DNA from: an uncultured virus (IMG/VR IMGVR_UViG_3300002835_000125)
Taxonomy: Duplodnaviria; Heunggongvirae; Uroviricota; Caudoviricetes
IMG/VR virus record: IMGVR_UViG_3300002835_000125
Length of the DNA: 64,000 nucleotides
Direction: 5' to 3' (one strand)
Shown here: positions 2,357 through 33,104 of the stretch, one piece after another
How positions within the stretch are numbered: position 1 is the first letter of the stretch
Layout: every line of letters begins with the position of its first letter
Made by a program: the position numbers and the translations under genes
The notes under the pieces: generated by a model
What the model saw: the letters and a program-made list of their open reading frames with translations, nothing else
What the model was told of the DNA's origin: nothing
Databases searched by the model: none

Positions 2357-4088
2357 AGTACGTAAGAATCCTATACAATATAATATACAGTTAGATGAAG
2401 AGCAAAAGGCTGGTAAAGCTATAATTCTTCAATATCCTATTACATTAATTACTGGTCAGGCTGGATGTTTAGGATTAGACACAGAAGTATTAATGTATAA
2501 TGGAACTTTTAAAAAAGTTCAAGATATTGTTGTAGGTGACCAATTAATGGGACCAGATTCTAAGCCTAGAAATGTATTATCTTTATGTAGAGGCATAGAC
2601 CAAATGTATTGGATTAGACAAAATAGAGGAATTGATTATAGAGTTAATAGTAATCATATACTATCATTAATAAGAGTTCAAACTGCAAAATATCCAAGAA
2701 TTGCAGTTGATGGTGTAAGAAAACAAGATTTTTCAAGACCTCCTATTCATCCTAAAAAGGAAACAGTTACAAATATAGAAGTTAATAGATATTTTGATTT
2801 GGGTTCTAAAAAACAATATATGGGATATATTTCAAATTGTCTTTTCTTTGAAGAAAAGAATTTATCAATTGACCCATATTATTTAGGACTTTGGTTAGGA
2901 GATGGAAGTAAAAATTGTATAAGAGAAATTACAGCAGCAGATTCTGAAATAATAAATTATTTAATTGACAAAGGAGCAAGAGCTAAATTAAATAGTAAAT
3001 ATGCATGGTTATTACCAATAAATTTAGAAACAGTTGAGTCTTTTAAAGATTTATTTTCAATTACAAATTCTTCAAAATTACCTGAAAAATTTATACCTAA
3101 TGATTATTTGTTTAACTCAAAAGAAAATAGATTAAAATTGTTAGCTGGTTTATTAGATAGTGATGGACATTATATAAAAGATGGAAAATATTATGAAATA
3201 ATAGTAAAAAATAAAAGATTAGCAGATAATATAACATTTCTATGTAGAAGTCTTGGTTATAAAACTAATCAAAGAGACAAGAAAGCTAGTATGAAAAGAG
3301 ATGATGGTACTATATATAAATGTATTGTTCAAAGAATATCTATAATGACAGAAGATATTATACCTGTTATTATAGATAGAAAAAAGAATGAAATTGGTTC
3401 TGATTTTAAAAATAGAAAATACACAGGATTCAAAATAGAAAAAGATATTATTGATAATTACTATGGGTTTACACTTGATGAAGATAATCTTTTTTTATTA
3501 AAGGACTTAACCGTTACTCATAATTCAGGTAAAAGTTTAGTTGCTCTACAGACTGGATTGGATTTTGTTAATAGTAAGATGGGTAAGATGGTATTAACAC
3601 GTTCTTTAGTAGAGGTTGGAGATGAATCAATGGGTTATTTACCCGGAGATGCTAAAGAAAAGTTAAGTCCTTATTTAGAAGCAGCAATGGAGAATCTTGA
3701 GAAATGTATGTCAAGACAAGAGATTTTAAAGCTTGTTAATGATAATAGGATTGTTGCTGGTCCTGTAAACTTCATGAGAGGTAAGACTGTAGAGGATGTG
3801 CTTATTGTAGAAGAGGGACAAAATCTTACTATAGGACAGATGTTAGCAGTTTTAACAAGAACTGGTAAGGAGGGTAAGATTATTATTACTGGTGACTTGG
3901 CTCAAAAGGATAGAAGAAAGGAAAGAAGTTATGGAGCATTGGACTTAGCAATTGATTTAGCTAAGGACTTACCTGAATATATAGGATGGGTAAAACTTAA
4001 TGGTCAGCATAGACATGATGTGGTTAGTAAGATAAATGACTTAATTTATTCTGATAAATATAAAAATAGGGTATTCCCTGAAAACTAA
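2340..4088 (+). CDS. phoH: PhoH-like ATPase interrupted by an intein
   Basis: Walker A GQAG|SGKS split by intein; PhoH motifs MGYLPGDAKEK, FMRGKT, VEEGQN, VLTRTG, ITGDLAQKD, HRH. Confidence 0.93.
   Translation: MKEPNRVRKNPIQYNIQLDEEQKAGKAIILQYPITLITGQAGCLGLDTEVLMYNGTFKKVQDIVVGDQLMGPDSKPRNVLSLCRGIDQMYWIRQNRGIDYRVNSNHILSLIRVQTAKYPRIAVDGVRKQDFSRPPIHPKKETVTNIEVNRYFDLGSKKQYMGYISNCLFFEEKNLSIDPYYLGLWLGDGSKNCIREITAADSEIINYLIDKGARAKLNSKYAWLLPINLETVESFKDLFSITNSSKLPEKFIPNDYLFNSKENRLKLLAGLLDSDGHYIKDGKYYEIIVKNKRLADNITFLCRSLGYKTNQRDKKASMKRDDGTIYKCIVQRISIMTEDIIPVIIDRKKNEIGSDFKNRKYTGFKIEKDIIDNYYGFTLDEDNLFLLKDLTVTHNSGKSLVALQTGLDFVNSKMGKMVLTRSLVEVGDESMGYLPGDAKEKLSPYLEAAMENLEKCMSRQEILKLVNDNRIVAGPVNFMRGKTVEDVLIVEEGQNLTIGQMLAVLTRTGKEGKIIITGDLAQKDRRKERSYGALDLAIDLAKDLPEYIGWVKLNGQHRHDVVSKINDLIYSDKYKNRVFPEN
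2466..3524 (+). mobile_element. intein (353 aa) with LAGLIDADG homing endonuclease
   Basis: Starts CLGLDTEVLMYNG, ends VTHN followed by Ser; internal LGLWLGDG and LLAGLLDSDG motifs. Confidence 0.93.
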
Positions 4089-5468: not shown

Positions 5469-5996
5469 ATGAAAACAAAAATTTTTGAAGCTTTAGGACA
5501 AGCTTCTATGTGTTGGTCTGAAATTCCAAACGGAGTATTTGATTCTTCTAAAGTATTAGAAGTAGGTAATGAACTACTAAAAAGTGTTTATACTACAGAA
5601 GGAGTACAAGAAATAATAAATGATTTAGATGGTTCTGAAATAGAACTTATTAATGATAAGTGGCATAGTTTCAAAGAACTTTATGAATTCAGGAAGATGT
5701 ATAATGCTGCTTTGTTCAATGAATGGGCTAATCATACTTGGGTTAGAAAAATACAAGGGGATACTGTAACAGGTATAAAATTTAGTGTCCATAAGTCATG
5801 GAAGCATTATGATGGAGAACTTTGTTTTGGTGGAGGATGGTTTATAGTTAGTGCTATGTTACCTACAGGATTGATTTCCAATCATTATGAAGCTAAAGAT
5901 TGGGATATGTTTAAGATTCCTGAAGTTGAGAAAGCTCTTTTCGAGTATGATGGACATACAGGACAAGATGTATTGAATCGTTTAAAACAATTATAA
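5469..5996 (+). CDS. phage protein, WDGH-like domain
   Basis: HSFKELYEFR...HKSWKHYDG...GGGWFIV...ISNHY...YDGHT pattern recalled from this phage family. Confidence 0.7.
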   Translation: MKTKIFEALGQASMCWSEIPNGVFDSSKVLEVGNELLKSVYTTEGVQEIINDLDGSEIELINDKWHSFKELYEFRKMYNAALFNEWANHTWVRKIQGDTVTGIKFSVHKSWKHYDGELCFGGGWFIVSAMLPTGLISNHYEAKDWDMFKIPEVEKALFEYDGHTGQDVLNRLKQL

Positions 5997-6196
5997 TGAT
6001 AATAACAATAGATAGAAATAATGAAGAAAGGCAATGTCCTATCATAACAATTGATACTAGAAAGTGTTATTCCGAATATGCTGTTAGAAATTGTCTTGAA
6101 TTAGCATTAGAATTAGAGGGTTACTCTGAACAGGATATTGATAGAGTATTTAATTTACAAAGAGATTTAGTTTGTAAACAAGAAGACTTAACTTAA
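5996..6196 (+). CDS. hypothetical protein
   Basis: TAATG coupling. Confidence 0.65.
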   Translation: MIITIDRNNEERQCPIITIDTRKCYSEYAVRNCLELALELEGYSEQDIDRVFNLQRDLVCKQEDLT

Positions 6197-24756: not shown

Positions 24757-25902
24757 ATGGCTTGTAGTCCTTATAATCCTTGTCACACACCAACTTGTGA
24801 CACATGTAATACAGTAAATCCTTGTTATGACAATTGTGGTTGTTTAAATCCAACTACATTTGATTGTATAACAAATTTCAAAAAAGCATATAACAATATC
24901 CCTTTAGAAATAAATGCTACAGGGCAAGATATGCTTGATAATCTTGATGAAACAGTAGCTGAAATAGAAAGTAATCTATATAAAGTAAAGGTGGATGATA
25001 GTGATACTTGTCCTGATACACTCTTAGATAAGATTACAGCAGGTAGCAATATTACAGTATCTGTAGCAGGAAGTGGATGTAATAGAAAACTTACTATAAC
25101 AGCAGGGAATGGTATAACAACTGCTCCTGATATATATGCTAAAGTTTCATCTAATGACACTACATCTGATTATCTTGGTAATAAATTTGTAGATGGTACA
25201 TATGTTAAGAAATCTGTAAATAGTCCCGGTGGAAATGAAACAATTGATTTTGACATTACAATAGCTGATTTAATCTCTACTGATAGTGGAAACCAATTAG
25301 GACAAGGAGTAGATGGTAAATTAAAAACTTTGTTCTCTGCACCTGATGGTTCTGAAACTAAAATTAACCCTGTTGCAAATTCTGGAATTACCCTAACTGG
25401 TACAGGTACTAATGGTGACCCTTATCTTATAGGAACTAATGGAGCATTATTTGCTGTTCAACCATATACAGATGGTGTATGGAGAACATTAACCTTTAAC
25501 AATGGTAGCAATGCTAATGTGACACTTAATTCTCAATCTGTTAAATATCGTATGAGATACGATGGTTCTGTAGAGTTTAAAGGAAGCTTAAATTATAGTG
25601 TAACATTCAATGTAGCAAGTACTAATAAGATAGCTATAACAGCAGCTAACATCACTACAGGAGGCTCAACAAACCTTCCTTCAACAGCCTTTGATAGGGT
25701 TGCTAATCTAAGACATTATATGACGTTCAGTAGCCCTAATACAATAAGTGCTACACCAAAATTAACAGGTTATAATGTAAACATATTAGCTGCTGCTTTA
25801 AATAGTCCAGCACCAATTCAAATAGAATTTATGAATGACACTGCTGAAACTAAAAATATAGTAGTAACAATGGATGGAGCAATATATCATCCTAATATTT
25901 AA
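24757..25902 (+). CDS. putative tail fibre protein
   Basis: Cys-rich N-terminus; repeated KV...DT...L..K units; ISTDSGNQLGQGVDGKL; beta-rich head domain. Confidence 0.65.
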   Translation: MACSPYNPCHTPTCDTCNTVNPCYDNCGCLNPTTFDCITNFKKAYNNIPLEINATGQDMLDNLDETVAEIESNLYKVKVDDSDTCPDTLLDKITAGSNITVSVAGSGCNRKLTITAGNGITTAPDIYAKVSSNDTTSDYLGNKFVDGTYVKKSVNSPGGNETIDFDITIADLISTDSGNQLGQGVDGKLKTLFSAPDGSETKINPVANSGITLTGTGTNGDPYLIGTNGALFAVQPYTDGVWRTLTFNNGSNANVTLNSQSVKYRMRYDGSVEFKGSLNYSVTFNVASTNKIAITAANITTGGSTNLPSTAFDRVANLRHYMTFSSPNTISATPKLTGYNVNILAAALNSPAPIQIEFMNDTAETKNIVVTMDGAIYHPNI

Positions 25903-25953
25903 GAATTTAGAAAGAACGTAGCTTTTTTTGGTTTTTGCTGCATATGTTTTTCG

Positions 25954-25975
25954 GAGCCGTTCTCGGCTCTTTTTT
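25954..25975 (+). terminator. intrinsic terminator
   Basis: GAGCCG-TTCT-CGGCTC plus T6. Confidence 0.85.
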
Positions 25976-26010
25976 CTTTTTATTAACATTTTAAATTGTA
26001 ATTTTGTATT

Positions 26011-26265
26011 ATGATAATAACAGATAACATATTCTATTTAGATAATGGAGTAGAAAGACAAATAAATGTATTTAACGAAAGTGACCCACACTATAGATGT
26101 TTTGAATCAGATGGACAGAAACAAATAATCTTTGGAAGAAGTTCATTTGTAAAAACTGAAAATGGAGAAGTAGATTTCTTCTCTTTAAGCAAAGAAGAAA
26201 AAGATAAATTCTGTAATAACACTAATTTTATAAAAACTTATAAAAAATATGATATACATAGGTAA
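26011..26265 (+). CDS. hypothetical protein (probably leaderless)
   Basis: TAATTTTG at 25999-26006, then 4 nt, then ATG. Confidence 0.7.
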   Translation: MIITDNIFYLDNGVERQINVFNESDPHYRCFESDGQKQIIFGRSSFVKTENGEVDFFSLSKEEKDKFCNNTNFIKTYKKYDIHR

Positions 26266-26312
26266 AGAATTAAGATGTTGGAAACACGTTAACAATGAAT
26301 TAACACAACATA

Positions 26313-26344
26313 TTTGATTATATAAAATTATTACACTATATTAC
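26313..26344 (+). promoter_or_regulatory. promoter of tRNA operon 1
   Basis: TTTG-N20-TATATTAC. Confidence 0.65.
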
Positions 26345-26353
26345 AATATAATT

Positions 26354-26434
26354 ATGAAATACGTAGTAACACATACAACATGTCCACAGTGGTTTACACC
26401 GACAATATCGGGAGGGGCTTTGTATGTATACTAA
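26354..26434 (+). CDS. attenuator leader peptide 1 (MKYVVTHTTCPQWFTPTISGGALYVY)
   Basis: Between promoter and terminator; codons 6-17 encode only T,H,C,P,Q,W,F, the downstream tRNA set. Confidence 0.85.
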   Translation: MKYVVTHTTCPQWFTPTISGGALYVY

Positions 26435-26456
26435 GAAATAGCTGTGTAGTAACATC

Positions 26457-26484
26457 AACCCTCTGAGAAATCGGAGGGTTTTTT
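26457..26484 (+). terminator. attenuator terminator 1
   Basis: AACCCTCTGA-GAAA-TCGGAGGGTT-TTTT; 5' arm can pair alternatively with 26408-26426. Confidence 0.88.
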
Positions 26485-26488
26485 ATTT

Positions 26489-26582
26489 CTAGTTGTGGAC
26501 GAGAGGTTTATGTCATTAGTCTTGGAAACTAATATCTGCACACAGATGGTGTGGGTCAAGGGTTCGACTCCCTTCAACTAGA
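26489..26582 (+). tRNA. tRNA-Pro(TGG), long variable region
   Basis: CTAGTTG/CAACTAG acceptor; TTAGT-CTTGGAA-ACTAA; T arm AAGGG-TTCGACT-CCCTT. Confidence 0.85.
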
Positions 26583-26592
26583 CTTTTAATTT

Positions 26593-26665
26593 GCCTTACG
26601 AAGCTTTTATGGATGAAGTGTACTCTTGTAAAGTACGGAACTGGACTCGATTTCCAGCTAAGGCT
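26593..26665 (+). tRNA. tRNA-Thr(TGT)
   Basis: GCCTTA/TAAGGC; GTACT-CTTGTAA-AGTAC; T arm CTGGA/TCCAG. Confidence 0.85.
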
Positions 26666-26671
26666 CAAATT

Positions 26672-26744
26672 GGAGAAGAAGCTAACTTGGTAGAAGCGTT
26701 AGACTGAAAATCTAAAGGAGTTGGTCCGAAACCAACCTTCTCCG
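26672..26744 (+). tRNA. tRNA-Phe(GAA)
   Basis: GGAGAAG/CTTCTCC; TTAGA-CTGAAAA-TCTAA. Confidence 0.92.
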
Positions 26745-26746
26745 CT

Positions 26747-26821
26747 AAATACTTAATGAAACAATAAAGGAACAAAGGGGTCCGGGTAGAAATACGTTAG
26801 CGCCCATTGATTTAAGTATTT
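26747..26821 (+). ncRNA. unknown structured RNA in tRNA operon 1
   Basis: 10 bp closing stem AAATACTTAA/TTAAGTATTT; inner CAAT/ATTG, GGG/CCC, GTA-GAAA-TAC. Confidence 0.5.
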
Positions 26822-26826
26822 TTTAT

Positions 26827-26898
26827 TCCTATGTGGTGTAATGTAACATCCACGCCTTTGAAGCGTTGAGATTGGTGGTTCAAGTCCATCTATAGGAA
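26827..26898 (+). tRNA. tRNA-Gln(TTG)
   Basis: TCCTATG/TATAGGA; ACGC-CTTTGAA-GCGT; GGTGG-TTCAAGT-CCATC. Confidence 0.88.
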
Positions 26899-26900
26899 CT

Positions 26901-26975
26901 GTCTAAGTGTTCTGACTGGATTCAGATGAATGACTGTGAATTATTCAAAAAGGGTTCGAATCCCACTTAGACCCA
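26901..26975 (+). tRNA. tRNA-His(GTG)
   Basis: GTCTAAG/CTTAGAC; AATGA-CTGTGAA-TTATT; GGG-TTCGAAT-CCC. Confidence 0.85.
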
Positions 26976-26979
26976 ATAT

Positions 26980-27052
26980 ATAGGTACTCATGGCTGGCGT
27001 GATAAACAATCTCCAAAATTGTGATTTGTTGAATCGTTCTCAACTACCTATG
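26980..27052 (+). tRNA. tRNA-Trp(CCA)
   Basis: ATAGGTA/TACCTAT; ACAAT-CTCCAAA-ATTGT; divergent T loop ATCGTTC. Confidence 0.8.
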
Positions 27053-27108
27053 CTTTATAGGTCTATATACCTATATTTATAGATTATAGGTTTTAAAGGC
27101 TATAATTT

Positions 27109-27184
27109 GTCCAGATACCTAATATTGATTTTGGGATAGGTCTGCAACACCTATTAAATATCGGTTTGATTCCGATTCTGGACT
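27109..27184 (+). tRNA. tRNA-Cys(GCA)
   Basis: GTCCAGA/TCTGGAC, U73; TAGGT-CTGCAAC-ACCTA. Confidence 0.85.
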
Positions 27185-27222
27185 CTATTAAAAATAAATT
27201 TTTTTATTTGAAAAAGATTTCG

Positions 27223-27230
27223 TATATTTG
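27223..27230 (+). promoter_or_regulatory. -7 element of tRNA operon 2 promoter
   Basis: TATATTTG, canonical TAnnTTTG. Confidence 0.7.
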
Positions 27231-27255
27231 CTGTATAAATAATAAACATTCAACA

Positions 27256-27336
27256 ATGCAACTTATAAATATGATAGTGGATAACGGTATTGGAGCAAAC
27301 GAGAAGTTTGGCTTCAGGTATTCTATTGTCGTATAA
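27256..27336 (+). CDS. attenuator leader peptide 2 (MQLINMIVDNGIGANEKFGFRYSIVV)
   Basis: Codons 4-17 encode only I,N,M,V,D,G,A,E,K, the downstream tRNA set. Confidence 0.85.
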   Translation: MQLINMIVDNGIGANEKFGFRYSIVV

Positions 27337-27357
27337 TTACTTACTAACCCGATAAAG

Positions 27358-27388
27358 AATCCTGAGGCCCATCGCTTCGGGATTTTTT
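27358..27388 (+). terminator. attenuator terminator 2
   Basis: AATCCTGAGGC-CCATC-GCTTCGGGATT-TTTT; 27350-27369 can pair alternatively with 27310-27331. Confidence 0.88.
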
Positions 27389-27392
27389 GTTT

Positions 27393-27467
27393 AATCTCGT
27401 AGCAAAATGTGGCTTTGCTTCAGCCTTTTAAGCTGACTAAAAATGGGTTCGACTCCCATCGGGATTA
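27393..27467 (+). tRNA. tRNA-Lys(TTT)
   Basis: AATCTCG/CGGGATT; TCAGC-CTTTTAA-GCTGA. Confidence 0.9.
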
Positions 27468-27473
27468 CTAAAT

Positions 27474-27546
27474 GGCTCTTTAGCTCAGTGGTAGAGCTTC
27501 GTTTTTACATGACGAGAAAGCACTTGTCCGATTCAAGTAAGAGCTA
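27474..27546 (+). tRNA. tRNA-Val(TAC)
   Basis: GGCTCTT/AAGAGCT; TCGTT-TTTACAT-GACGA. Confidence 0.88.
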
Positions 27547-27547
27547 C

Positions 27548-27877
27548 ATGAAATATATATTAGGAATACTGTTCTTATTAATTATAGGAACAGCAACAAA
27601 AACAGGAATTGCAAGTTATTATCATAACAAGTTTCAAGGAAGGAAAACTGCTAGTGGTGAATTATATGATAAACATAAATTAACAGCAGCTTCTAATCAA
27701 TATAAACTTGGTGATAGTGTAAGAGTAACAAATACTAAGAATGGTAAAAGTGTAAATGTTACAGTAAATGACCGTATGGCTAATAATGGAAGACTAATTG
27801 ATTTAAGTAGAAGTGCTGCTGATAGTCTTGGTTTTATTAAGGATGGTTTAGTTGTAGTTAAAGTTAGTATATTATAA
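27548..27877 (+). CDS. rlpA: RlpA-family lytic transglycosylase (DPBB domain) with hydrophobic N-terminus
   Basis: GIASYY...GRKTASGE.YD...LTAA...VRVTN..NGKSV.V.VNDR...RLIDLSRSAA; start revised to 27548 because the track N-terminus overlaps two tRNAs. Confidence 0.92.
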   Translation: MKYILGILFLLIIGTATKTGIASYYHNKFQGRKTASGELYDKHKLTAASNQYKLGDSVRVTNTKNGKSVNVTVNDRMANNGRLIDLSRSAADSLGFIKDGLVVVKVSIL

Positions 27878-27882
27878 ATATC

Positions 27883-27956
27883 TGTTTTGTAGCTCAGTGG
27901 CCTAGAGCGTGAAGCTGTTAACTTCAGGGTCGTGGGTTCGAATCCCATCAGGACAG
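27883..27956 (+). tRNA. tRNA-Asn(GTT)
   Basis: TGTTTTG/CAGGACA; TGAAG-CTGTTAA-CTTCA. Confidence 0.93.
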
Positions 27957-27961
27957 CATAT

Positions 27962-28046
27962 TGTGGGATGGTGTAATTGGTAACACGCAAGGCTCATAAC
28001 CTTGAGACAGAAAATGCTAGCAAGGGTTCGAATCCCTTTCCCGCAA
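27962..28046 (+). tRNA. tRNA-Met(CAT), initiator-like acceptor, long variable loop
   Basis: TGTGGGA/TCCCGCA; CAAGG-CTCATAA-CCTTG; 17 nt variable region. Confidence 0.85.
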
Positions 28047-28051
28047 CACAA

Positions 28052-28124
28052 GCAGTATAGGCAGATTGGCTTATGCACCTCACTTCCAATGAGGACATGG
28101 TGGGTTCGATTCCTACATGCTGCA
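28052..28124 (+). tRNA. tRNA-Gly(TCC)
   Basis: GCAGTAT/ATGCTGC; CCTCA-CTTCCAA-TGAGG. Confidence 0.9.
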
Positions 28125-28171
28125 CAAAAATTATATTATGAAAAATTCTTTAAAAGAAGGTGAAGAGATAT

Positions 28172-28244
28172 ACTCTCATCTTCTAGTTGGTCAGGATAAC
28201 ACACTTTCAATGTGTTGACACGGGTTCAAGCCCCGTTGGGAGTG
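28172..28244 (+). tRNA. tRNA-Glu(TTC)
   Basis: ACTCTCA/TGGGAGT; ACACA-CTTTCAA-TGTGT. Confidence 0.9.
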
Positions 28245-28254
28245 CTTTAAAAAT

Positions 28255-28328
28255 GGTAGATGGGTCTGCTGGATGAAGATGTCGGTCTGTCGAACCGAAG
28301 ATGATGGGTTTGAATCCCATATCTACCG
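28255..28328 (+). tRNA. tRNA-Asp(GTC)
   Basis: GGTAGAT/ATCTACC, G73; TCGGT-CTGTCGA-ACCGA. Confidence 0.88.
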
Positions 28329-28333
28329 CATTA

Positions 28334-28408
28334 GGACTTGTAGCCAAGTTGGTAAAGGCCCTTGACTCATAATCAAGAGATGCAATGGTTCGAGACCATT
28401 CAAGTCCA
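28334..28408 (+). tRNA. tRNA with CAT anticodon, probably Ile2 (lysidine, reads AUA)
   Basis: GGACTTG/CAAGTCC; CTTGA-CTCATAA-TCAAG resembles bacterial Ile2; leader 2 has two ATA codons. Confidence 0.8.
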
Positions 28409-28413
28409 CATAT

Positions 28414-28485
28414 AGGAATATAGTAGAAGGGTTATCACAATTGACTGATACTCAATTAATATAGGTTCGAATCCTATTGTTCCTA
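28414..28485 (+). tRNA. tRNA-Ile(GAT)
   Basis: AGGAATA/TGTTCCT; ATTGA-CTGATAC-TCAAT. Confidence 0.9.
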
Positions 28486-28490
28486 CATTT

Positions 28491-28563
28491 GGGGATAAAG
28501 CTCTAGCGGATGAGCATCTGCCTTGCACGTAGAAGGTTACGATTTCGAGTGTCGTTATCTCCA
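28491..28563 (+). tRNA. tRNA-Ala(TGC)
   Basis: GGGGATA/TATCTCC with G3-U70; TCTGC-CTTGCAC-GTAGA. Confidence 0.9.
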
Positions 28564-28585
28564 CATAGGGGTTCGGAAAATAATT

Positions 28586-28623
28586 AGCTACATCTCTTTA
28601 TTAATAAGGGTTGTAGCTTTTTT
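28586..28623 (+). terminator. terminator ending tRNA operon 2
   Basis: AGCTACA...TGTAGCT stem plus T tract. Confidence 0.75.
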
Positions 28624-28664
28624 ATTGTCTCAAATATTGTAATAATTTGCGACATAATTTATTT

Positions 28665-28695
28665 TTTGTCAGGTTATAACCTTTCTTTATCTTTG
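28665..28695 (+). promoter_or_regulatory. Bacteroidota sigma-A type promoter
   Basis: TTTG-N19-TATCTTTG. Confidence 0.75.
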
Positions 28696-28699
28696 TTTT

Positions 28700-28867
28700 A
28701 TGAATTGGCATATACTACCTGTAAATGATATAGAATATCATGAAGAATCTACCACTTGTAAGTGTGAACCACAAGTAGAATTTATAGAAGGAGATATGCT
28801 AATTATACAAAACTCTTTTGATGGTAGAGAAGGAGTTGAATGGGTAAATGAAATTTTAAATAAATAA
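28700..28867 (+). CDS. small His/Cys-containing phage protein (55 aa; not in track)
   Basis: MNWHILPVNDIEYHEESTTCKCEPQVEFIEGDMLIIHNSFDGREGVEWVNEILNK; has its own promoter. Confidence 0.8.
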   Translation: MNWHILPVNDIEYHEESTTCKCEPQVEFIEGDMLIIQNSFDGREGVEWVNEILNK

Positions 28868-28899
28868 TTTGGAAAATTCAAAATAATTTCGTATATTTG
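28868..28899 (+). promoter_or_regulatory. promoter of tRNA operon 3
   Basis: TTTG-N20-TATATTTG, perfect consensus. Confidence 0.85.
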
Positions 28900-28903
28900 C
28901 TTT

Positions 28904-28972
28904 ATGAAAACATTATCACTATATAGTTCCTCAAGTTATCTCTTATTAAGAGACAGGGATTGTATTGTGTAA
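28904..28972 (+). CDS. attenuator leader peptide 3 (MKTLSLYSSSSYLLLRDRDCIV)
   Basis: Codons 4-15 encode only L,S,Y, the downstream tRNA set. Confidence 0.88.
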   Translation: MKTLSLYSSSSYLLLRDRDCIV

Positions 28973-29000
28973 ATAGCTATAAGCTTTTAGCTCCCCTAAC

Positions 29001-29032
29001 AATCCCTTGTCTTTCCAGATGAGGGATTTTTT
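29001..29032 (+). terminator. attenuator terminator 3
   Basis: AATCCCTTGTCT-TTCC-AGATGAGGGATT-TTTT; 28999-29012 can pair alternatively with 28951-28963. Confidence 0.88.
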
Positions 29033-29035
29033 ATT

Positions 29036-29108
29036 GGCTCTATGACGTAATCGGCAACCGTCTTGGCTTTAGACCCCAAGTTTTCCAGTTCGAATCTGGA
29101 TAGAGCTA
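29036..29108 (+). tRNA. tRNA-Leu(TAG) lacking a long variable arm
   Basis: GGCTCTA/TAGAGCT, A73; CTTGG-CTTTAGACC-CCAAG centred on TAG; TCCAG-TTCGAAT-CTGGA. Confidence 0.8.
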
Positions 29109-29163
29109 CAAATTAGCAGCCCTCTATGGATAATTCTATTGACGAATAGAATATGGGCAAAAT

Positions 29164-29246
29164 ATTCCTGTGGTGAAATGGTGAGACACGGCAGACTTAA
29201 AATCTGCTACGGAGAAACGTTGCTGGTTCGAATCCAGTCAGGAATA
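29164..29246 (+). tRNA. tRNA-Leu(TAA)
   Basis: ATTCCTG/CAGGAAT; GCAGA-CTTAAAA-TCTGC; variable arm present. Confidence 0.93.
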
Positions 29247-29249
29247 CTT

Positions 29250-29334
29250 AGCAGAATGTCAGAGTGGTTTATTGTGATAGTCTTGAAAACTATTGGGTGT
29301 AAAAGCTCCTTGGGTTCGAATCCCAATTTTGCTG
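29250..29334 (+). tRNA. tRNA-Ser(TGA)
   Basis: AGCAGAA/TTTTGCT, G73; ATAGT-CTTGAAA-ACTAT. Confidence 0.9.
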
Positions 29335-29338
29335 CAAT

Positions 29339-29427
29339 AGAAGATTGTGTGAGTGGCTTAAACAACCAGTTTGCTAAACTGGCGAGGGATTAAAACACCT
29401 CCATTGGTTCAAATCCAATATCTTCTG
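29339..29427 (+). tRNA. tRNA-Ser(GCT)
   Basis: AGAAGAT/ATCTTCT, G73; CCAGT-TTGCTAA-ACTGG. Confidence 0.92.
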
Positions 29428-29432
29428 CATAT

Positions 29433-29525
29433 TGTGTTGTAACGGCAGTAGACTGTAAATCTACTCTGCATAACAAATTGTCGTACTGGTCTCGCAGTAA
29501 GAAGGTTCGAATCCTTTCAACACAA
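29433..29525 (+). tRNA. tRNA-Tyr(GTA), non-canonical (no D-arm in normal position, 36 nt variable region)
   Basis: TGTGTTG/CAACACA, A73; GTAGA-CTGTAAA-TCTAC; GAAGG-TTCGAAT-CCTTT; only 8 nt between acceptor and anticodon arms. Confidence 0.75.
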
Positions 29526-29551
29526 CATTAACTTATTATTAACTATAGACA

Positions 29552-29583
29552 TTTGACTATATAAAGTAAATAGTCTATTTTTG
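29552..29583 (+). promoter_or_regulatory. promoter inside an imperfect palindrome
   Basis: TTTG-N20-TATTTTTG; inverted repeat ATAGAC...GTCTAT spans it. Confidence 0.75.
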
Positions 29584-29587
29584 TATT

Positions 29588-29725
29588 GTACAAATTCCCA
29601 ACCGTCATAGGAGATTTGTATTTAATTAACAATAACTATATATTCGATTGATGTAACTTTGTTCTTAGGAACGCAACTTGACGGTTGGGACCCCTTGTAC
29701 TTAATTGTATGAGGGGATTTTTTTT
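29588..29725 (+). ncRNA. putative small RNA or structured leader with terminator
   Basis: Perfect 12 bp stem 29596-29607/29679-29690; terminator CCCCTTGTAC/GTATGAGGGG plus T tract. Confidence 0.6.
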
Positions 29726-29827
29726 GCAGACATCCGAGGTTTTTCTTTCCTTCTTTTACGTCCTCCACAAAAATAAAAGAGTGTCATTAAGATAGTATAG
29801 TATATTACACTTGGTATATTATATGAT

Positions 29828-30056
29828 AGGATGTAGAAAAATCAGCAATGTCTAAGGTGACAACTGGACCTGAACGAAATTATCAGCAAAAACTACATTC
29901 CTCCGTGAAAAATAAAATCATCTTATAGCTGATAATTATTTGTAGATGATTGGCAGGACATGGGAATCTTAGGTTGACAATATGTTTATAGGAGTATGTG
30001 TTAACTATAAATACATTATCCCAACAGGGGAAGACCTTGTTCAGGATAGACCCCCT
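29828..30056 (+). ncRNA. putative multi-pseudoknot RNA
   Basis: Several hairpins plus three 8-10 bp crossing helices; no credible ORF. Confidence 0.55.
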
Positions 30057-30085
30057 TATGTAAATTAACAATAAAATGTAAAACT

Positions 30086-30391
30086 ATGAAAAACCACAAA
30101 ATGACATCATATCAATTCATGATGTTAATGCAAGAATTACCAAATCCAATGTATTATGCTAGAAATGGAGCTAATGTAGGATTTAGAGTAAAAGTAGGAT
30201 ATTTAAAGAAGTCCATTGATAATACTCCTACAATATTAATAAATCCTAATTCTCAACCTATGAAGATGGCAGAAGTTGAACAGGTAGAATTTGAATTAGT
30301 TCCGAACAATACTATTTGGTATTGGCAACCTGTAGAACCAATTACTATAATAACATTAGATAAGAAAGAGTACATTAAAAATTGGGAATAA
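30086..30391 (+). CDS. hypothetical protein
   Basis: ORF with A-rich start context. Confidence 0.7.
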   Translation: MKNHKMTSYQFMMLMQELPNPMYYARNGANVGFRVKVGYLKKSIDNTPTILINPNSQPMKMAEVEQVEFELVPNNTIWYWQPVEPITIITLDKKEYIKNWE

Positions 30392-30699
30392 TGAATATAA
30401 TAAAATGGTATAAAAGAGTATTTAGAATTCTTACTATAGAAGAATGTAAAGAATTAGGATTAGTACATTCTCATAATATATATGGTGATAGTATTAATCA
30501 TTTAAATTGTAGAAGTATTTGGAAAGATGAAAAGGATAGAACATATAGGTGTGAAAGTTTAATACCTACTATAGGAGTACTAGATTTATGGATTTTAAAA
30601 ATGAAAAATCAAGATAAAGTACAACCAATAACTCAAGAAGAATATAATAAAATAAGAGATGAAGAATTTGAAAGGCTCAAGACTTTATATTCGCCTTAA
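30391..30699 (+). CDS. hypothetical protein (ATG 30391, TAATG coupled)
   Basis: ORF track; NIYGDSINHLNCRSIW motif. Confidence 0.7.
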   Translation: MNIIKWYKRVFRILTIEECKELGLVHSHNIYGDSINHLNCRSIWKDEKDRTYRCESLIPTIGVLDLWILKMKNQDKVQPITQEEYNKIRDEEFERLKTLYSP

Positions 30700-30736
30700 C
30701 AAATAATAGTGTAATTTTGGCTTCTAAATAAAAATC

Positions 30737-31057
30737 ATGAAAGTATTAACAGAAGGACATTATTATGAACTAGAACATTTTGAAAAAGATGAATCGGGTA
30801 GTTCAGAAAGTTTACAATTTATCGAAAAGGTTCCAAAAGGTGAAGGGAAAGTACAAGATTTAGTAACAGTAAATAATGGAACTACAAATGAAGAAGTTCT
30901 TAAAGTTCTAATAAATAGAATGAACTATTTACAAGCAAAATTTCCATGTAGAGAAAATGCTATTGTAATTACAAAACTTGAAGAAAGTCTAATGTGGTTA
31001 GAAAAAAGAACTGTTGATAGAATAGCTAGAAATGTAGAAGGTAAACAATTAAAATAA
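30737..31057 (+). CDS. Tad1/Acb2-like immune signal sponge protein
   Basis: LQF...NGTTNEEVLKVLINRMNYLQAKFPCRENAIVITKLEESLMWLEKRTVDRIARNVEG matches the Tad1 helical hairpin as recalled. Confidence 0.78.
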   Translation: MKVLTEGHYYELEHFEKDESGSSESLQFIEKVPKGEGKVQDLVTVNNGTTNEEVLKVLINRMNYLQAKFPCRENAIVITKLEESLMWLEKRTVDRIARNVEGKQLK

Positions 31058-31065
31058 AATAAACT

Positions 31066-31281
31066 ATGAAAAAACAATTATTTACGTATGCTGTATTATT
31101 CCATCAGCATGAAGAGAAAGAGGGAAAATTGGAATACAAAGAAACACTTATTCTTGTAGAACCAAAAGTGATTTTAGCAAAGAATAGTAATGAAGTAGCA
31201 TTCAAAGCTACAAGAGACGTACCAGAACAATATGCAGGATTTTCAGAAAATGTAGAAATTATAGTACGCCCTTTTAAATAG
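31066..31281 (+). CDS. small conserved phage protein ending VRPFK
   Basis: LFTYAVLFH...VILAK...VEIIVRPF. Confidence 0.75.
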   Translation: MKKQLFTYAVLFHQHEEKEGKLEYKETLILVEPKVILAKNSNEVAFKATRDVPEQYAGFSENVEIIVRPFK

Positions 31282-31291
31282 CTCCCCCTTA

Positions 31292-31471
31292 ATGTGGGAT
31301 AGTGGGAGCAAAGGAGTATGGGAACAATTAGTAGACCCACCTAAATATAAAAGTACTTTCCAAAATTATATGGGTACAACTACAAATTTAGTAGGACAAG
31401 CAATAAACACTTTGACAACAGGAACATCAATATCATATAACATGGCAGATGCAATGTCATTCACAAATTAA
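31292..31471 (+). CDS. hypothetical protein (59 aa; not in track)
   Basis: Open frame filling the gap. Confidence 0.45.
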   Translation: MWDSGSKGVWEQLVDPPKYKSTFQNYMGTTTNLVGQAINTLTTGTSISYNMADAMSFTN

Positions 31472-31480
31472 AATCAAATT

Positions 31481-31645
31481 ATGAAAACACTAACAAATCT
31501 ATTTACAAGCAACCCATCTTACATGAAATGGGGTAATGAAAGAATTGCAAAAAGAACAGGGCTGAAACCAAAAACAGTAGAGAAATTCAAAAAGAATCCC
31601 TTGTATAAGATAATGAAAACCCAATATCTTAACGAGATTAATTAG
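31481..31645 (+). CDS. small HTH-like protein (54 aa; not in track)
   Basis: MKTLTNLFTSNPSYMKWGNERIAKRTGLKPKTVEKFKK...; good start context. Confidence 0.65.
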   Translation: MKTLTNLFTSNPSYMKWGNERIAKRTGLKPKTVEKFKKNPLYKIMKTQYLNEIN

Positions 31646-31695
31646 GAAATGTCGCAAAAAAGGCGTATATTGTTATGATATGCGCTTTTTTATTT

Positions 31696-31767
31696 GGCTC
31701 CTTAGTTAAATGGATATAACCGCAGAATTCTAATCTGCATTTGGGAGTTCGATTCTCTCAGGGGCTA
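31696..31767 (+). tRNA. tRNA-Arg(TCT)
   Basis: GGCTCCT/AGGGGCT; GCAGA-ATTCTAA-TCTGC; GGGAG-TTCGATT-CTCTC. Confidence 0.9.
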
Positions 31768-31787
31768 CGAAATCTTAAAAATAAATT

Positions 31788-33104
31788 ATGATTATAACAC
31801 AAACAATGCAAAAGTTTATTGACAATCCGAAGATGTTAGAGAGTGGATATTGCTCAAAAGCAAAATTAGCTCAAAGACTTGGAACAACAATAGACGATAT
31901 TACAGAATCAAGGTTTAAAGTGAAACAAATGATGTCTTCATTAGACCATGCTCAAGAGTTCTTTAAAGAATTAAAATCAGAAATTGTTAATGAACATACT
32001 ACAAGAGTAGATAATGAAAAGGGTACTATAACATCGGATGTAGAAACTACATTTGAACCCAAGAATGATATTGAATTAGCTGAATTACATAAGATTGATT
32101 TAACAAAATACAAAATAAGTACATATTGGTCTAAACTAAAGAGCAATGGTAAATTCACTTCATCTGTATTAGCTACATTAAGAAATATTGATAAGGATAT
32201 TCCTAAACAAAAAGAATCATTAATAGAAGAAATAGATGAATATTTTGGTAGTAAAAAAGCTATTGAAAATTATAGATTCTTCACAAGAGAAATTGATAAG
32301 GATAGAAAAACTGCTAAAAATACAGATGGTCAACTATTAGAAATATCCATTCCTGATTTACACATTGGTAAAATGTCTCATAGAGAAGAAACAGGGGAAG
32401 ATTATGATTTAAAAATTGCATCTGCAAGATATAAGAATGCTATAACTCAACTATTAAAAACAGCCAATTTAGATAATGTATCTGATATATTACTACCCAT
32501 TGGTAATGACTTGTTCAATGTAGATAATCAGTTCTCAACTACTACAGGTGGTACACCACAGGATTGTGATAGTAGGTTCCACAAGATGGTAGGAGCAGCA
32601 AAAGAACTCCTTATAAATACAATAACAGGGTTAAGTGCATTTGCAAGAGTACATGTTCTTATAGTACCAGGCAATCATGATGAAGTTACAACATTTATGT
32701 TAGGTGAAATATTAGAAGCATGGTTTCATAATGATAGTAACATAACTGTAAATAATACAGCAAAACTTAGAAAATACTTCCAATTTGGAAAGAATTCTTT
32801 CCTTTATACTCATGGAGACAAAGAAAAACATGGGGATTTAGGATTGATATTTGCTACAGAAGAACCTAGACTTTGGGCTGATACTAAATACAGATTTGTA
32901 AAACTTGGTCATCTTCACAAGCAAAAGAAAATAGAATATATAACAACAGACACACTTCAAGGGTTCCAAATAGAAATACTTCCATCACTAAGTTCTGCTG
33001 ATAAGTGGCATTATGGAAAAGGTTTCTTAGGAGCAAAGCAAGCAAAAGCCTATCTCTATGATAAAGAACTTGGGGAAATTGCACAGTATACACACACTGT
33101 TTAA
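31788..33104 (+). CDS. calcineurin-like metallophosphoesterase with N-terminal HTH-like region
   Basis: DLHIG, GND, PGNHD, HGD, GHLH motifs. Confidence 0.88.
   Translation: MIITQTMQKFIDNPKMLESGYCSKAKLAQRLGTTIDDITESRFKVKQMMSSLDHAQEFFKELKSEIVNEHTTRVDNEKGTITSDVETTFEPKNDIELAELHKIDLTKYKISTYWSKLKSNGKFTSSVLATLRNIDKDIPKQKESLIEEIDEYFGSKKAIENYRFFTREIDKDRKTAKNTDGQLLEISIPDLHIGKMSHREETGEDYDLKIASARYKNAITQLLKTANLDNVSDILLPIGNDLFNVDNQFSTTTGGTPQDCDSRFHKMVGAAKELLINTITGLSAFARVHVLIVPGNHDEVTTFMLGEILEAWFHNDSNITVNNTAKLRKYFQFGKNSFLYTHGDKEKHGDLGLIFATEEPRLWADTKYRFVKLGHLHKQKKIEYITTDTLQGFQIEILPSLSSADKWHYGKGFLGAKQAKAYLYDKELGEIAQYTHTV

Follow-up and report, generated by a model that had tools for sequence, protein, structure and literature searches.

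Organization of the tRNA array

The window, the 64,000-nt stretch of DNA analysed here, belongs to a 155,874-bp single contig of 28.9% G+C and encodes phage portal, terminase and tail genes. The large terminase is distantly similar (~24% identity) to those of Flavobacterium phage FpV4 and crAss-like phages, which points to a phage of Bacteroidota. A one-strand tRNA array extends from 26489 to 29428 on the plus strand (ARAGORN). Relaxed ARAGORN settings add tRNAs for Thr, His and Trp to the array, and Rfam places 18 array tRNAs above threshold and the His tRNA just under it. Three units, each containing a short leader ORF and a terminator, precede three tRNA blocks among which 19 amino acids are divided.

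Unit 1 (26354–26490, plus strand) is composed of the leader MKYVVTHTTCPQWFTPTISGGALYVY (26354–26434) and a terminator (26457–26480), followed by tRNAs for Pro, Thr, Phe, Gln, His, Trp and Cys (26489–27185). Unit 2, with which we are chiefly concerned, lies between tRNA-Cys (27109–27185) and tRNA-Lys (27393–27468). The block behind it (27393–28564, plus strand; ARAGORN, Rfam and PHROG) contains ten tRNA genes and one protein-coding ORF, in the order Lys(ttt), Val(tac), RlpA-like ORF, Asn(gtt), Met(cat), Gly(tcc), Glu(ttc), Asp(gtc), Met(cat), Ile(gat), Ala(tgc). Unit 3 (28887–29035, plus strand) consists of a promoter 15-mer, the ORF MKTLSLYSSSSYLLLRDRDCIV (28904–28972) and a terminator (29001–29028), and its block holds tRNAs for Leu, Leu, Ser and Ser together with a Tyr-like element (29036–29520).

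The RlpA-like lipoprotein gene (109 aa, 27548–27877, plus strand; PHROG 7930, E = 1.7e-24) is positioned directly after tRNA-Val. We saw no promoter or terminator of its own at 27548–27877, and attenuator 2 would thus govern its expression together with that of the tRNAs. The gene is also present in a Leptolyngbya phage, where it lies next to tRNA-Asn, with 70% identity at the DNA level.

Leader ORF 2 matches its tRNA block

Leader ORF 2 (MQLINMIVDNGIGANEKFGFRYSIVV, 26 aa) spans 27256–27336 on the plus strand and ends with a stop codon at 27334–27336. The sequence and its translation begin with ATG CAA CTT, ahead of the putative sensing window; the resulting MQL start is common to leader 2 and the homologous unit of Cellulophaga phage phi17:2, and the Gln and Leu at codons 2–3 are amino acids of other tRNA blocks. 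The putative sensing window itself (codons 4–17, 27265–27306, plus strand) encodes I N M I V D N G I G A N E K. Its codons are those listed in the first-pass annotation of this DNA, ATA AAT ATG ATA GTG GAT AAC GGT ATT GGA GCA AAC GAG AAG, with both ATA and ATT present. That annotation also proposed that the leader senses Ile, Asn, Met, Val, Asp, Gly, Ala, Glu and Lys, and these are the same nine amino acids that the ten downstream tRNA genes carry: all 14 residues fall within the downstream set, and nine of nine amino acids are covered. Under strict wobble rules, the GGT codon is not readable by tRNA-Gly(UCC).

The match is exceptional within the 155,874-bp genome. When all 1366 ATG ORFs of 15–45 aa are ranked by their longest run of in-set residues, leader 2 is first, with a run of 14 residues compared with 10 in the next independent ORF. 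The same ranking puts each of the three leaders at the top of the 1366 for its own tRNA set, with matched runs of 12, 14 and 12 codons in units 1, 2 and 3 and of 7, 10 and 7 in the next independent ORFs. Leader 2 has two features expected of a leader-peptide attenuator: it is a short ORF with start and stop codons between a predicted promoter and the regulated genes, and it is rich in codons that relate to the function of the genes behind it.

Promoter and transcription start

A promoter-like element, TTTCGTATATTTGCT, is located at 27218–27232 on the plus strand and contains a Bacteroidota sigma-A −7 box, TATATTTG, at 27223–27230. The exact 15-mer occurs twice in the window, before leaders 2 and 3 only. 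In Flavobacteriaceae, TAnnTTTG is described as the −7 box of the primary sigma factor, at −12 to −5 (PMC9723704). By this rule, transcription of unit 2 is predicted to start at ~27235 and to produce a 21-nt A-rich 5′ UTR, and unit 3 is predicted to be leaderless. The same source describes Flavobacteriaceae as being without Shine-Dalgarno sites and notes signs of leader-peptide attenuation in their amino-acid operons (PMC9723704).

Three mutually exclusive hairpins

The transcript of unit 2 is predicted to fold into three alternative hairpins formed from four regions of the plus strand. In the minimum free energy (MFE) structure, region 1 (27269–27300) is the 5′ strand of an anti-antiterminator hairpin. 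Region 2 (27306–27334, codons 17–26) can pair with region 1 or, via 27310–27331, with region 3 (27350–27369), which includes the terminator 5′ arm (27351–27368). Region 4 (27374–27392) contains the terminator 3′ arm and the T-run, TTTTTTGTTT, ending at 27392. The 1:2 hairpin (27269–27300 with 27306–27334) has a folding energy of −23.7 kcal/mol in a piecewise fold. The antiterminator, 2:3, joins 27310–27331 (GGCTTCAGGTATTCTATTGTCG) to 27350–27369 (CGATAAAGAATCCTGAGGCC) through 20 pairs with two one-base bulges (−24.3 kcal/mol), and the terminator, 3:4, joins 27351–27368 to 27374–27391 through 18 pairs (−22.6 kcal/mol). In these predicted folds the three hairpins are mutually exclusive and of similar strength, so that the antiterminator pairing excludes the terminator. 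From the start codon to the T-run, the MFE is −46.3 kcal/mol (z = −5.8), and none of 200 shuffled sequences is as stable.

The pairing of about 20 bp between 27310–27331 and 27350–27369 had been put forward earlier, and co-folding reproduces it, beginning in codon 19. The 1:2 hairpin, an element of classical attenuators, is a third hairpin beyond those described then. The likeness previously drawn between leaders 1 and 2 holds for their length, 26 aa in both, but not for the start of the antiterminator strand, which lies at codon 20 in leader 1 (GGGAGG, at 26411) and at codon 19 in leader 2.

The intrinsic terminator of unit 2 is positioned between the leader and the tRNA block. Its T-run ends at 27392 and tRNA-Lys begins at 27393, which leaves no space for an intervening promoter. 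This terminator was found with RNAfold and a script; it is absent from a consensus terminator scan that did list its counterparts in units 1 and 3. The three-hairpin layout is predicted for all three units of the window, with energies for 1:2, 2:3 and 3:4 of −18.0, −15.3 and −16.5 kcal/mol in unit 1 and of −16.3, −21.8 and −18.8 kcal/mol in unit 3.

Ribosome position and the predicted switch

A positional scan of stall codons, proposed with the first-pass annotation as a check, was carried out in silico. We folded the transcript cut before the terminator 3′ arm with a ribosome placed at each codon and its leading edge at +12 or +8 nt. With the ribosome at codons 1–15 of unit 2, region 2 sequesters the terminator 5′ arm with a value of 0.99; at codons 23–27 the value is 0.07–0.10. 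In this model a ribosome at the leader end blocks the antiterminator and one at the regulatory codons does not, and the predicted sensing window covers codons 4 to about 17. Glu16 and Lys17 are close to region 2, and it had been cautioned that stalls there might still cover the start of the antiterminator. Sequestration at E16/K17 does fall, to 0.82/0.65 with the +12-nt edge and 0.99/0.86 with the +8-nt edge; since it is reduced rather than lost, these two residues are predicted to be sensed still, though less strongly. The switch points lie at about codons 17–18 in unit 1 and 13–15 in unit 3, and in each of the three units the in silico boundary coincides with the end of the matched-codon run.

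At full equilibrium with the terminator present, the unit 2 antiterminator wins only for stalls at codons 9–12, and partly at 13–14, and that of unit 1 never wins. For the switch to work, folding must then be co-transcriptional (kinetic). The decision is likewise kinetic in classical attenuators.

Occurrence in other phages

No close relative of the window was found among isolate phages by megablast and blastn of the array or by tblastn of a neighbouring ORF, in which only single tRNAs matched. In IMG/VR, the relatives of the neighbouring exonuclease (21 loci, 32–37% identity) have no tRNA array, with a single tRNA at one locus, and no relatives of the RlpA-like gene were found. Pattern scans with CGANNATATCGGGAGG and GTATNTTTGCNNNATGAAA recovered only L081, a phi17:2-like contig. 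A sample of IMG/VR arrays, defined by three consecutive GGTTCGANTCC motifs, gave 127 loci. Over these and three reference loci, 32 terminators lie directly before a tRNA. A strict detector found the design in just one contig, L300, indicating that the design is not general to phage tRNA arrays or that the detector misses other forms. No unit was found in Flavobacterium phage immuto (L023). A search of bacterial genomes for the promoter followed by MKT returned at least 120 loci, and no leader–terminator–tRNA unit was present among the matches listed, which are a small sample.

Homologous units are present in Cellulophaga phages phi17:2 and phi38:1 and in IMG/VR contigs L300, L367, L369, L392, L394, L404, L417 and L425. 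The tRNA set is split among blocks differently in these relatives than in the window, and the leaders differ with it. In phi17:2, MKIQRLHLQELEQPIISGGTGV precedes Pro, Glu, Gln, His, Leu, Leu and Arg(acg); a GTG-started leader beginning QLTKTGITVIDKTKGARA precedes Ala, Lys, Ile, Gly, Met, Asp, Thr, Val, Arg(tct) and Met; and a leader beginning MKTNYCTYNNSNWSFSY precedes Tyr, Ser, Ser, Asn, Trp, Phe and a tRNA with a GCA anticodon. CGT is used in the leader before Arg(acg) and AGA in that before Arg(tct). Phage phi38:1, from a different phage family, contains three units in the order B-C-A. One IMG/VR contig has a 14-aa leader, MKTINFNFDFDNRT, before Asp, Asn, Phe and Arg. In another, the Trp and Cys tRNAs have been relocated to a B-like block, and W and C have been added to the leader of that block.

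Several genes annotated as hypothetical proteins lie in the arrays of the two cultured phages: 3762–3881 of L022 (phi17:2 gp077) and 3307–3414, 5948–6130 and 6217–6348 of L358 (phi38:1 gp066, gp070 and gp071). Three of the hypothetical-protein genes in these arrays overlap leader ORFs and begin at upstream alternative start codons, and gp071 overlaps tRNA genes called by ARAGORN at relaxed settings. The gene annotations of these arrays probably need revision. In L300, a protein-coding ORF (3405–3890, plus strand) is found between tRNA-Leu and unit B.

Co-variation of leaders and tRNA blocks

For quantitative comparison we used a curated set of 24 non-identical units from 11 sources, with block borders set by hand and with the start or ORF picked after peptide inspection in three cases (GTG in the B units of phi17:2 and L300, and one of two overlapping ORFs in L417). 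Exact duplicates (L081, L359, L361, L429 and L368), an ORF before the lone tRNA-Arg of the window and an unrelated Ala(cgc) match in L427 were left out. Leader residues 2–17 belong to the tRNA set of their own block in 259 of 381 cases, compared with a mean of 111 (sd 18, maximum 191) when leader–block pairings are shuffled; none of 20000 shuffles reaches 259. With shuffles confined to each unit type, the corresponding p values are 0.006, 0.008 and 0.013. The tRNA identities of a block are nearly all represented by a codon in its own leader (130/135; Fisher p = 2e-48). For 138 of 149 non-Met tRNA genes, the leader contains a codon that the tRNA can read directly. Under strict rules, only 219/381 leader codons can be read directly by one of the tRNAs downstream. 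Among type-A units, a Glu tRNA and a Glu codon are both present in five and both lacking in four, with no discordant unit.

The match is confined to the leader frame. The in-set fraction across the 24 units is 0.68 in frame but 0.20 and 0.22 in the other frames, which contain 32 and 36 stop codons. It is highest at codons 7–14, where 19–24 of the 24 units match, and low at codons 1–3 and beyond codon 18.

Alternative pairing was examined in the relatives by folding the transcript cut before the terminator 3′ arm and requiring at least 60% of the 5′ arm to pair with the 3′ part of the leader. Such pairing, involving approximately codons 16–25, is predicted in 17 of 24 units with differing sequences; seven units fall under the 60% mark, and automatic arm detection failed in three of the 24. 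The structures of 16 units have z < −2 relative to shuffled upstream sequence. When six type-B units are aligned, region 2 and the terminator arms change together, as in GGAAGGATC with GATCCTTC (L300), GGGGAGG with CCCTCCCC (phi38:1) and GGCTTCAGG with CCTGAGGCC (window).

RNA from phi38:1 infections

RNA-seq runs from two studies represent 79–87% of the phi38:1 array. In each of three RNA-derived contigs from phi38:1 infections (X1-6, X2-13 and X3-18), leader C, its terminator and seven tRNAs are present together, so this region is represented in RNA libraries as one stretch; the evidence consists of contigs, which carry neither levels nor ends and may include carried-over DNA. The contigs break at the repeated promoter, an assembly effect that makes depth differences between leader and downstream sequence unusable. 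The passages of the phi38:1 transcriptome paper that mention tRNAs concern host tRNA genes (PMC5335546).

Proposed mechanism and alternative explanations

We propose that unit 2 is a ribosome-mediated attenuator of the trp/his type that serves as a feedback sensor of tRNA supply, and place the probability of this reading at roughly 80%. A leader-peptide attenuator had already been suggested in the first-pass annotation, and it gains computational support here from the structure, from the codon match within the genome and from co-variation over 24 units from 11 sources. From the computed structures, geometry, codon match and co-variation we infer translation, stalling, termination and a physiological trigger in the following scheme. 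Transcription would begin at ~27235 from the Bacteroidota-type promoter, and a ribosome would initiate at AUG 27256 without a Shine-Dalgarno site. When aminoacyl-tRNAs for all nine amino acids are plentiful, the ribosome would reach codons 19–26 and the stop codon and cover region 2, so region 3 would pair with region 4 and transcription would stop in the U-run, one base before tRNA-Lys. When any of the nine tRNAs is scarce, the ribosome would stall within codons 4–17 and occupy region 1; region 2 would then pair with region 3, no terminator would form, and readthrough would extend into the ten tRNA genes and the RlpA-like gene. The new tRNAs would speed translation of the leader and close the loop. 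With three units, the phage tRNA set would be organized as three separately sensed blocks. Host tRNAs read the same codons, so the signal would be the total pool rather than phage tRNAs alone.

A related arrangement would also contain a true translation-coupled attenuator, but one that reads general translation status or amino-acid supply, for instance as a timing device during infection, with the codon match serving only to make the leader a fair codon sample. Stalling does depend on charged tRNA, and amino-acid starvation would give an identical signal. Each leader, however, draws only on the amino acids that its own block carries and tracks tRNA genes that have moved between blocks, which would be needless in a general sensor, and extra tRNA would bring no relief from amino-acid starvation. 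We regard this explanation as rather improbable. Much the same choice between terminator and antiterminator is set by tRNA in T-box elements, and the codon-like triplets might accordingly be imagined to pair with tRNA anticodons at the RNA level, in the fashion of a T-box specifier and without translation. This is very unlikely: cmscan of 25800–32000 at E values up to 1 revealed neither a T-box nor any other cis-regulatory family; in every unit, an open frame begins with a start codon at a constant spacing from the promoter and terminates shortly past region 2; and the codon match is found in the leader frame only, with 32 and 36 stops in the others. Short ORFs are plentiful in AT-rich phage DNA, as the 1366 of 15–45 aa in this genome attest, but a chance ORF beside an ordinary terminator or processing hairpin of the array, with no regulation, is scarcely credible given that leader 2 is first of those 1366, that the match co-varies across lineages and is accompanied by alternative pairing in the relatives, and that, with the terminator immediately next to the first tRNA and no promoter in between, ten tRNA genes would be shut off if termination were constitutive.

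Within the attenuator reading, a broader role can be put forward only tentatively: the unit may be a modular, evolvable sensor of decoding capacity with an on-demand function in counter-defence, in which each block carries a test peptide that is rewritten when tRNA genes move. Loss of host tRNAs, whether to tRNA-cleaving immune nucleases or through decay after host shut-off, would then turn on only the block that replaces them.

Comparison with known attenuators

The leaders trpL, hisL, pheL and leuL are transcription attenuators of amino-acid operons. The phage unit shares with them a short leader ORF, regulatory codons, 1:2, 2:3 and 3:4 hairpins and an intrinsic terminator, and in both cases a stalled ribosome causes readthrough, as established for trpL-type attenuators and proposed here for the phage. 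It differs from the trpL type in controlling tRNA genes rather than enzymes, and in reading nine amino acids through one to three codons each rather than a run of one; across phages, the number read per unit is up to nine or ten and is set by block content. It is also phage-borne and without a Shine-Dalgarno site, with unit 3 predicted to be leaderless, and its product is proposed to feed back directly on decoding of the leader.

Multivalent attenuators include the thr leader (Thr and Ile) and the ilvGMEDA leader (Ile, Leu and Val). The phage unit would resemble these in that one leader senses several amino acids, but theirs are two or three amino acids of one pathway, whereas the nine of the phage unit follow tRNA content and are rewritten with it. 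T-box RNAs bind uncharged tRNA directly through one specifier codon and need no ribosome. As in a T-box, tRNA status would decide whether a terminator or an antiterminator forms ahead of genes related to translation; the T-box model of Stem I, specifier and T-box sequence is not matched, and cmscan of 25800–32000 (E up to 1) returned only tRNA, Plastid-ycf2 and sX4, the latter two being chance matches. The E. coli pheST operon, which encodes an aminoacyl-tRNA synthetase, is controlled by attenuation at the pheM leader, where a single amino acid is sensed. There too the gene under leader-peptide control belongs to the translation machinery, but the phage unit acts on tRNA genes instead of a synthetase and reads nine amino acids instead of one. 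We found no description of leader-peptide control of tRNA genes in the full-text literature, a search whose scope lay outside subscription journals and older papers on the phage T5 tRNA region.

If the proposed mechanism is correct, the regulated product is the molecule consumed by the sensor, which would create a direct feedback loop on decoding. This would explain how phages with large tRNA sets avoid unneeded tRNA synthesis, why their arrays are divided into blocks, and the small 'hypothetical' ORFs found in phage tRNA arrays, such as phi17:2 gp077, which overlaps a leader. The leaders would also reveal which shortages a phage listens for, making it testable whether phage tRNAs answer a codon-usage mismatch, host tRNA decay or tRNA-targeting defence, and the units would be compact, programmable supply sensors for chosen tRNAs. 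Because the system is present in two cultured Cellulophaga phages, phi17:2 and phi38:1, such experiments are feasible.

Additional features of the array

The Tyr-like element that ends the third block (29433–29520, plus strand) has the anticodon loop CUGUAAA and a normal T arm and acceptor stem, with a long insert and without an ordinary D arm; neither ARAGORN nor Rfam calls it. Leader 3 contains two Tyr codons. Two other tRNAs have an extra hairpin in the variable region that is unusual for their type: tRNA-Pro (26489–26583, 95 nt) and one of the CAT-anticodon tRNAs (27962–28047, 86 nt). Block A also includes structured spacers at 26746–26826 and 27054–27108 (plus strand), of which one is a 10-pair stem with a large loop followed by a T-run and the other consists of two AT-rich hairpins.

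Farther downstream, a strong terminator hairpin (31649–31690, plus strand) lies directly 5′ of a lone tRNA-Arg(tct). A 9-codon ORF, MSQKRRILL, has its AGG and CGT codons within the hairpin 5′ arm. We considered this ORF and terminator as a possible fourth, simpler switch; they have no promoter motif and no convincing geometry and were therefore not counted. Beyond the array itself is a long structured stretch (29586–29716, plus strand), and the strong terminator within it (29691–29716, 10 pairs and T8) probably marks the end of the array transcription unit.
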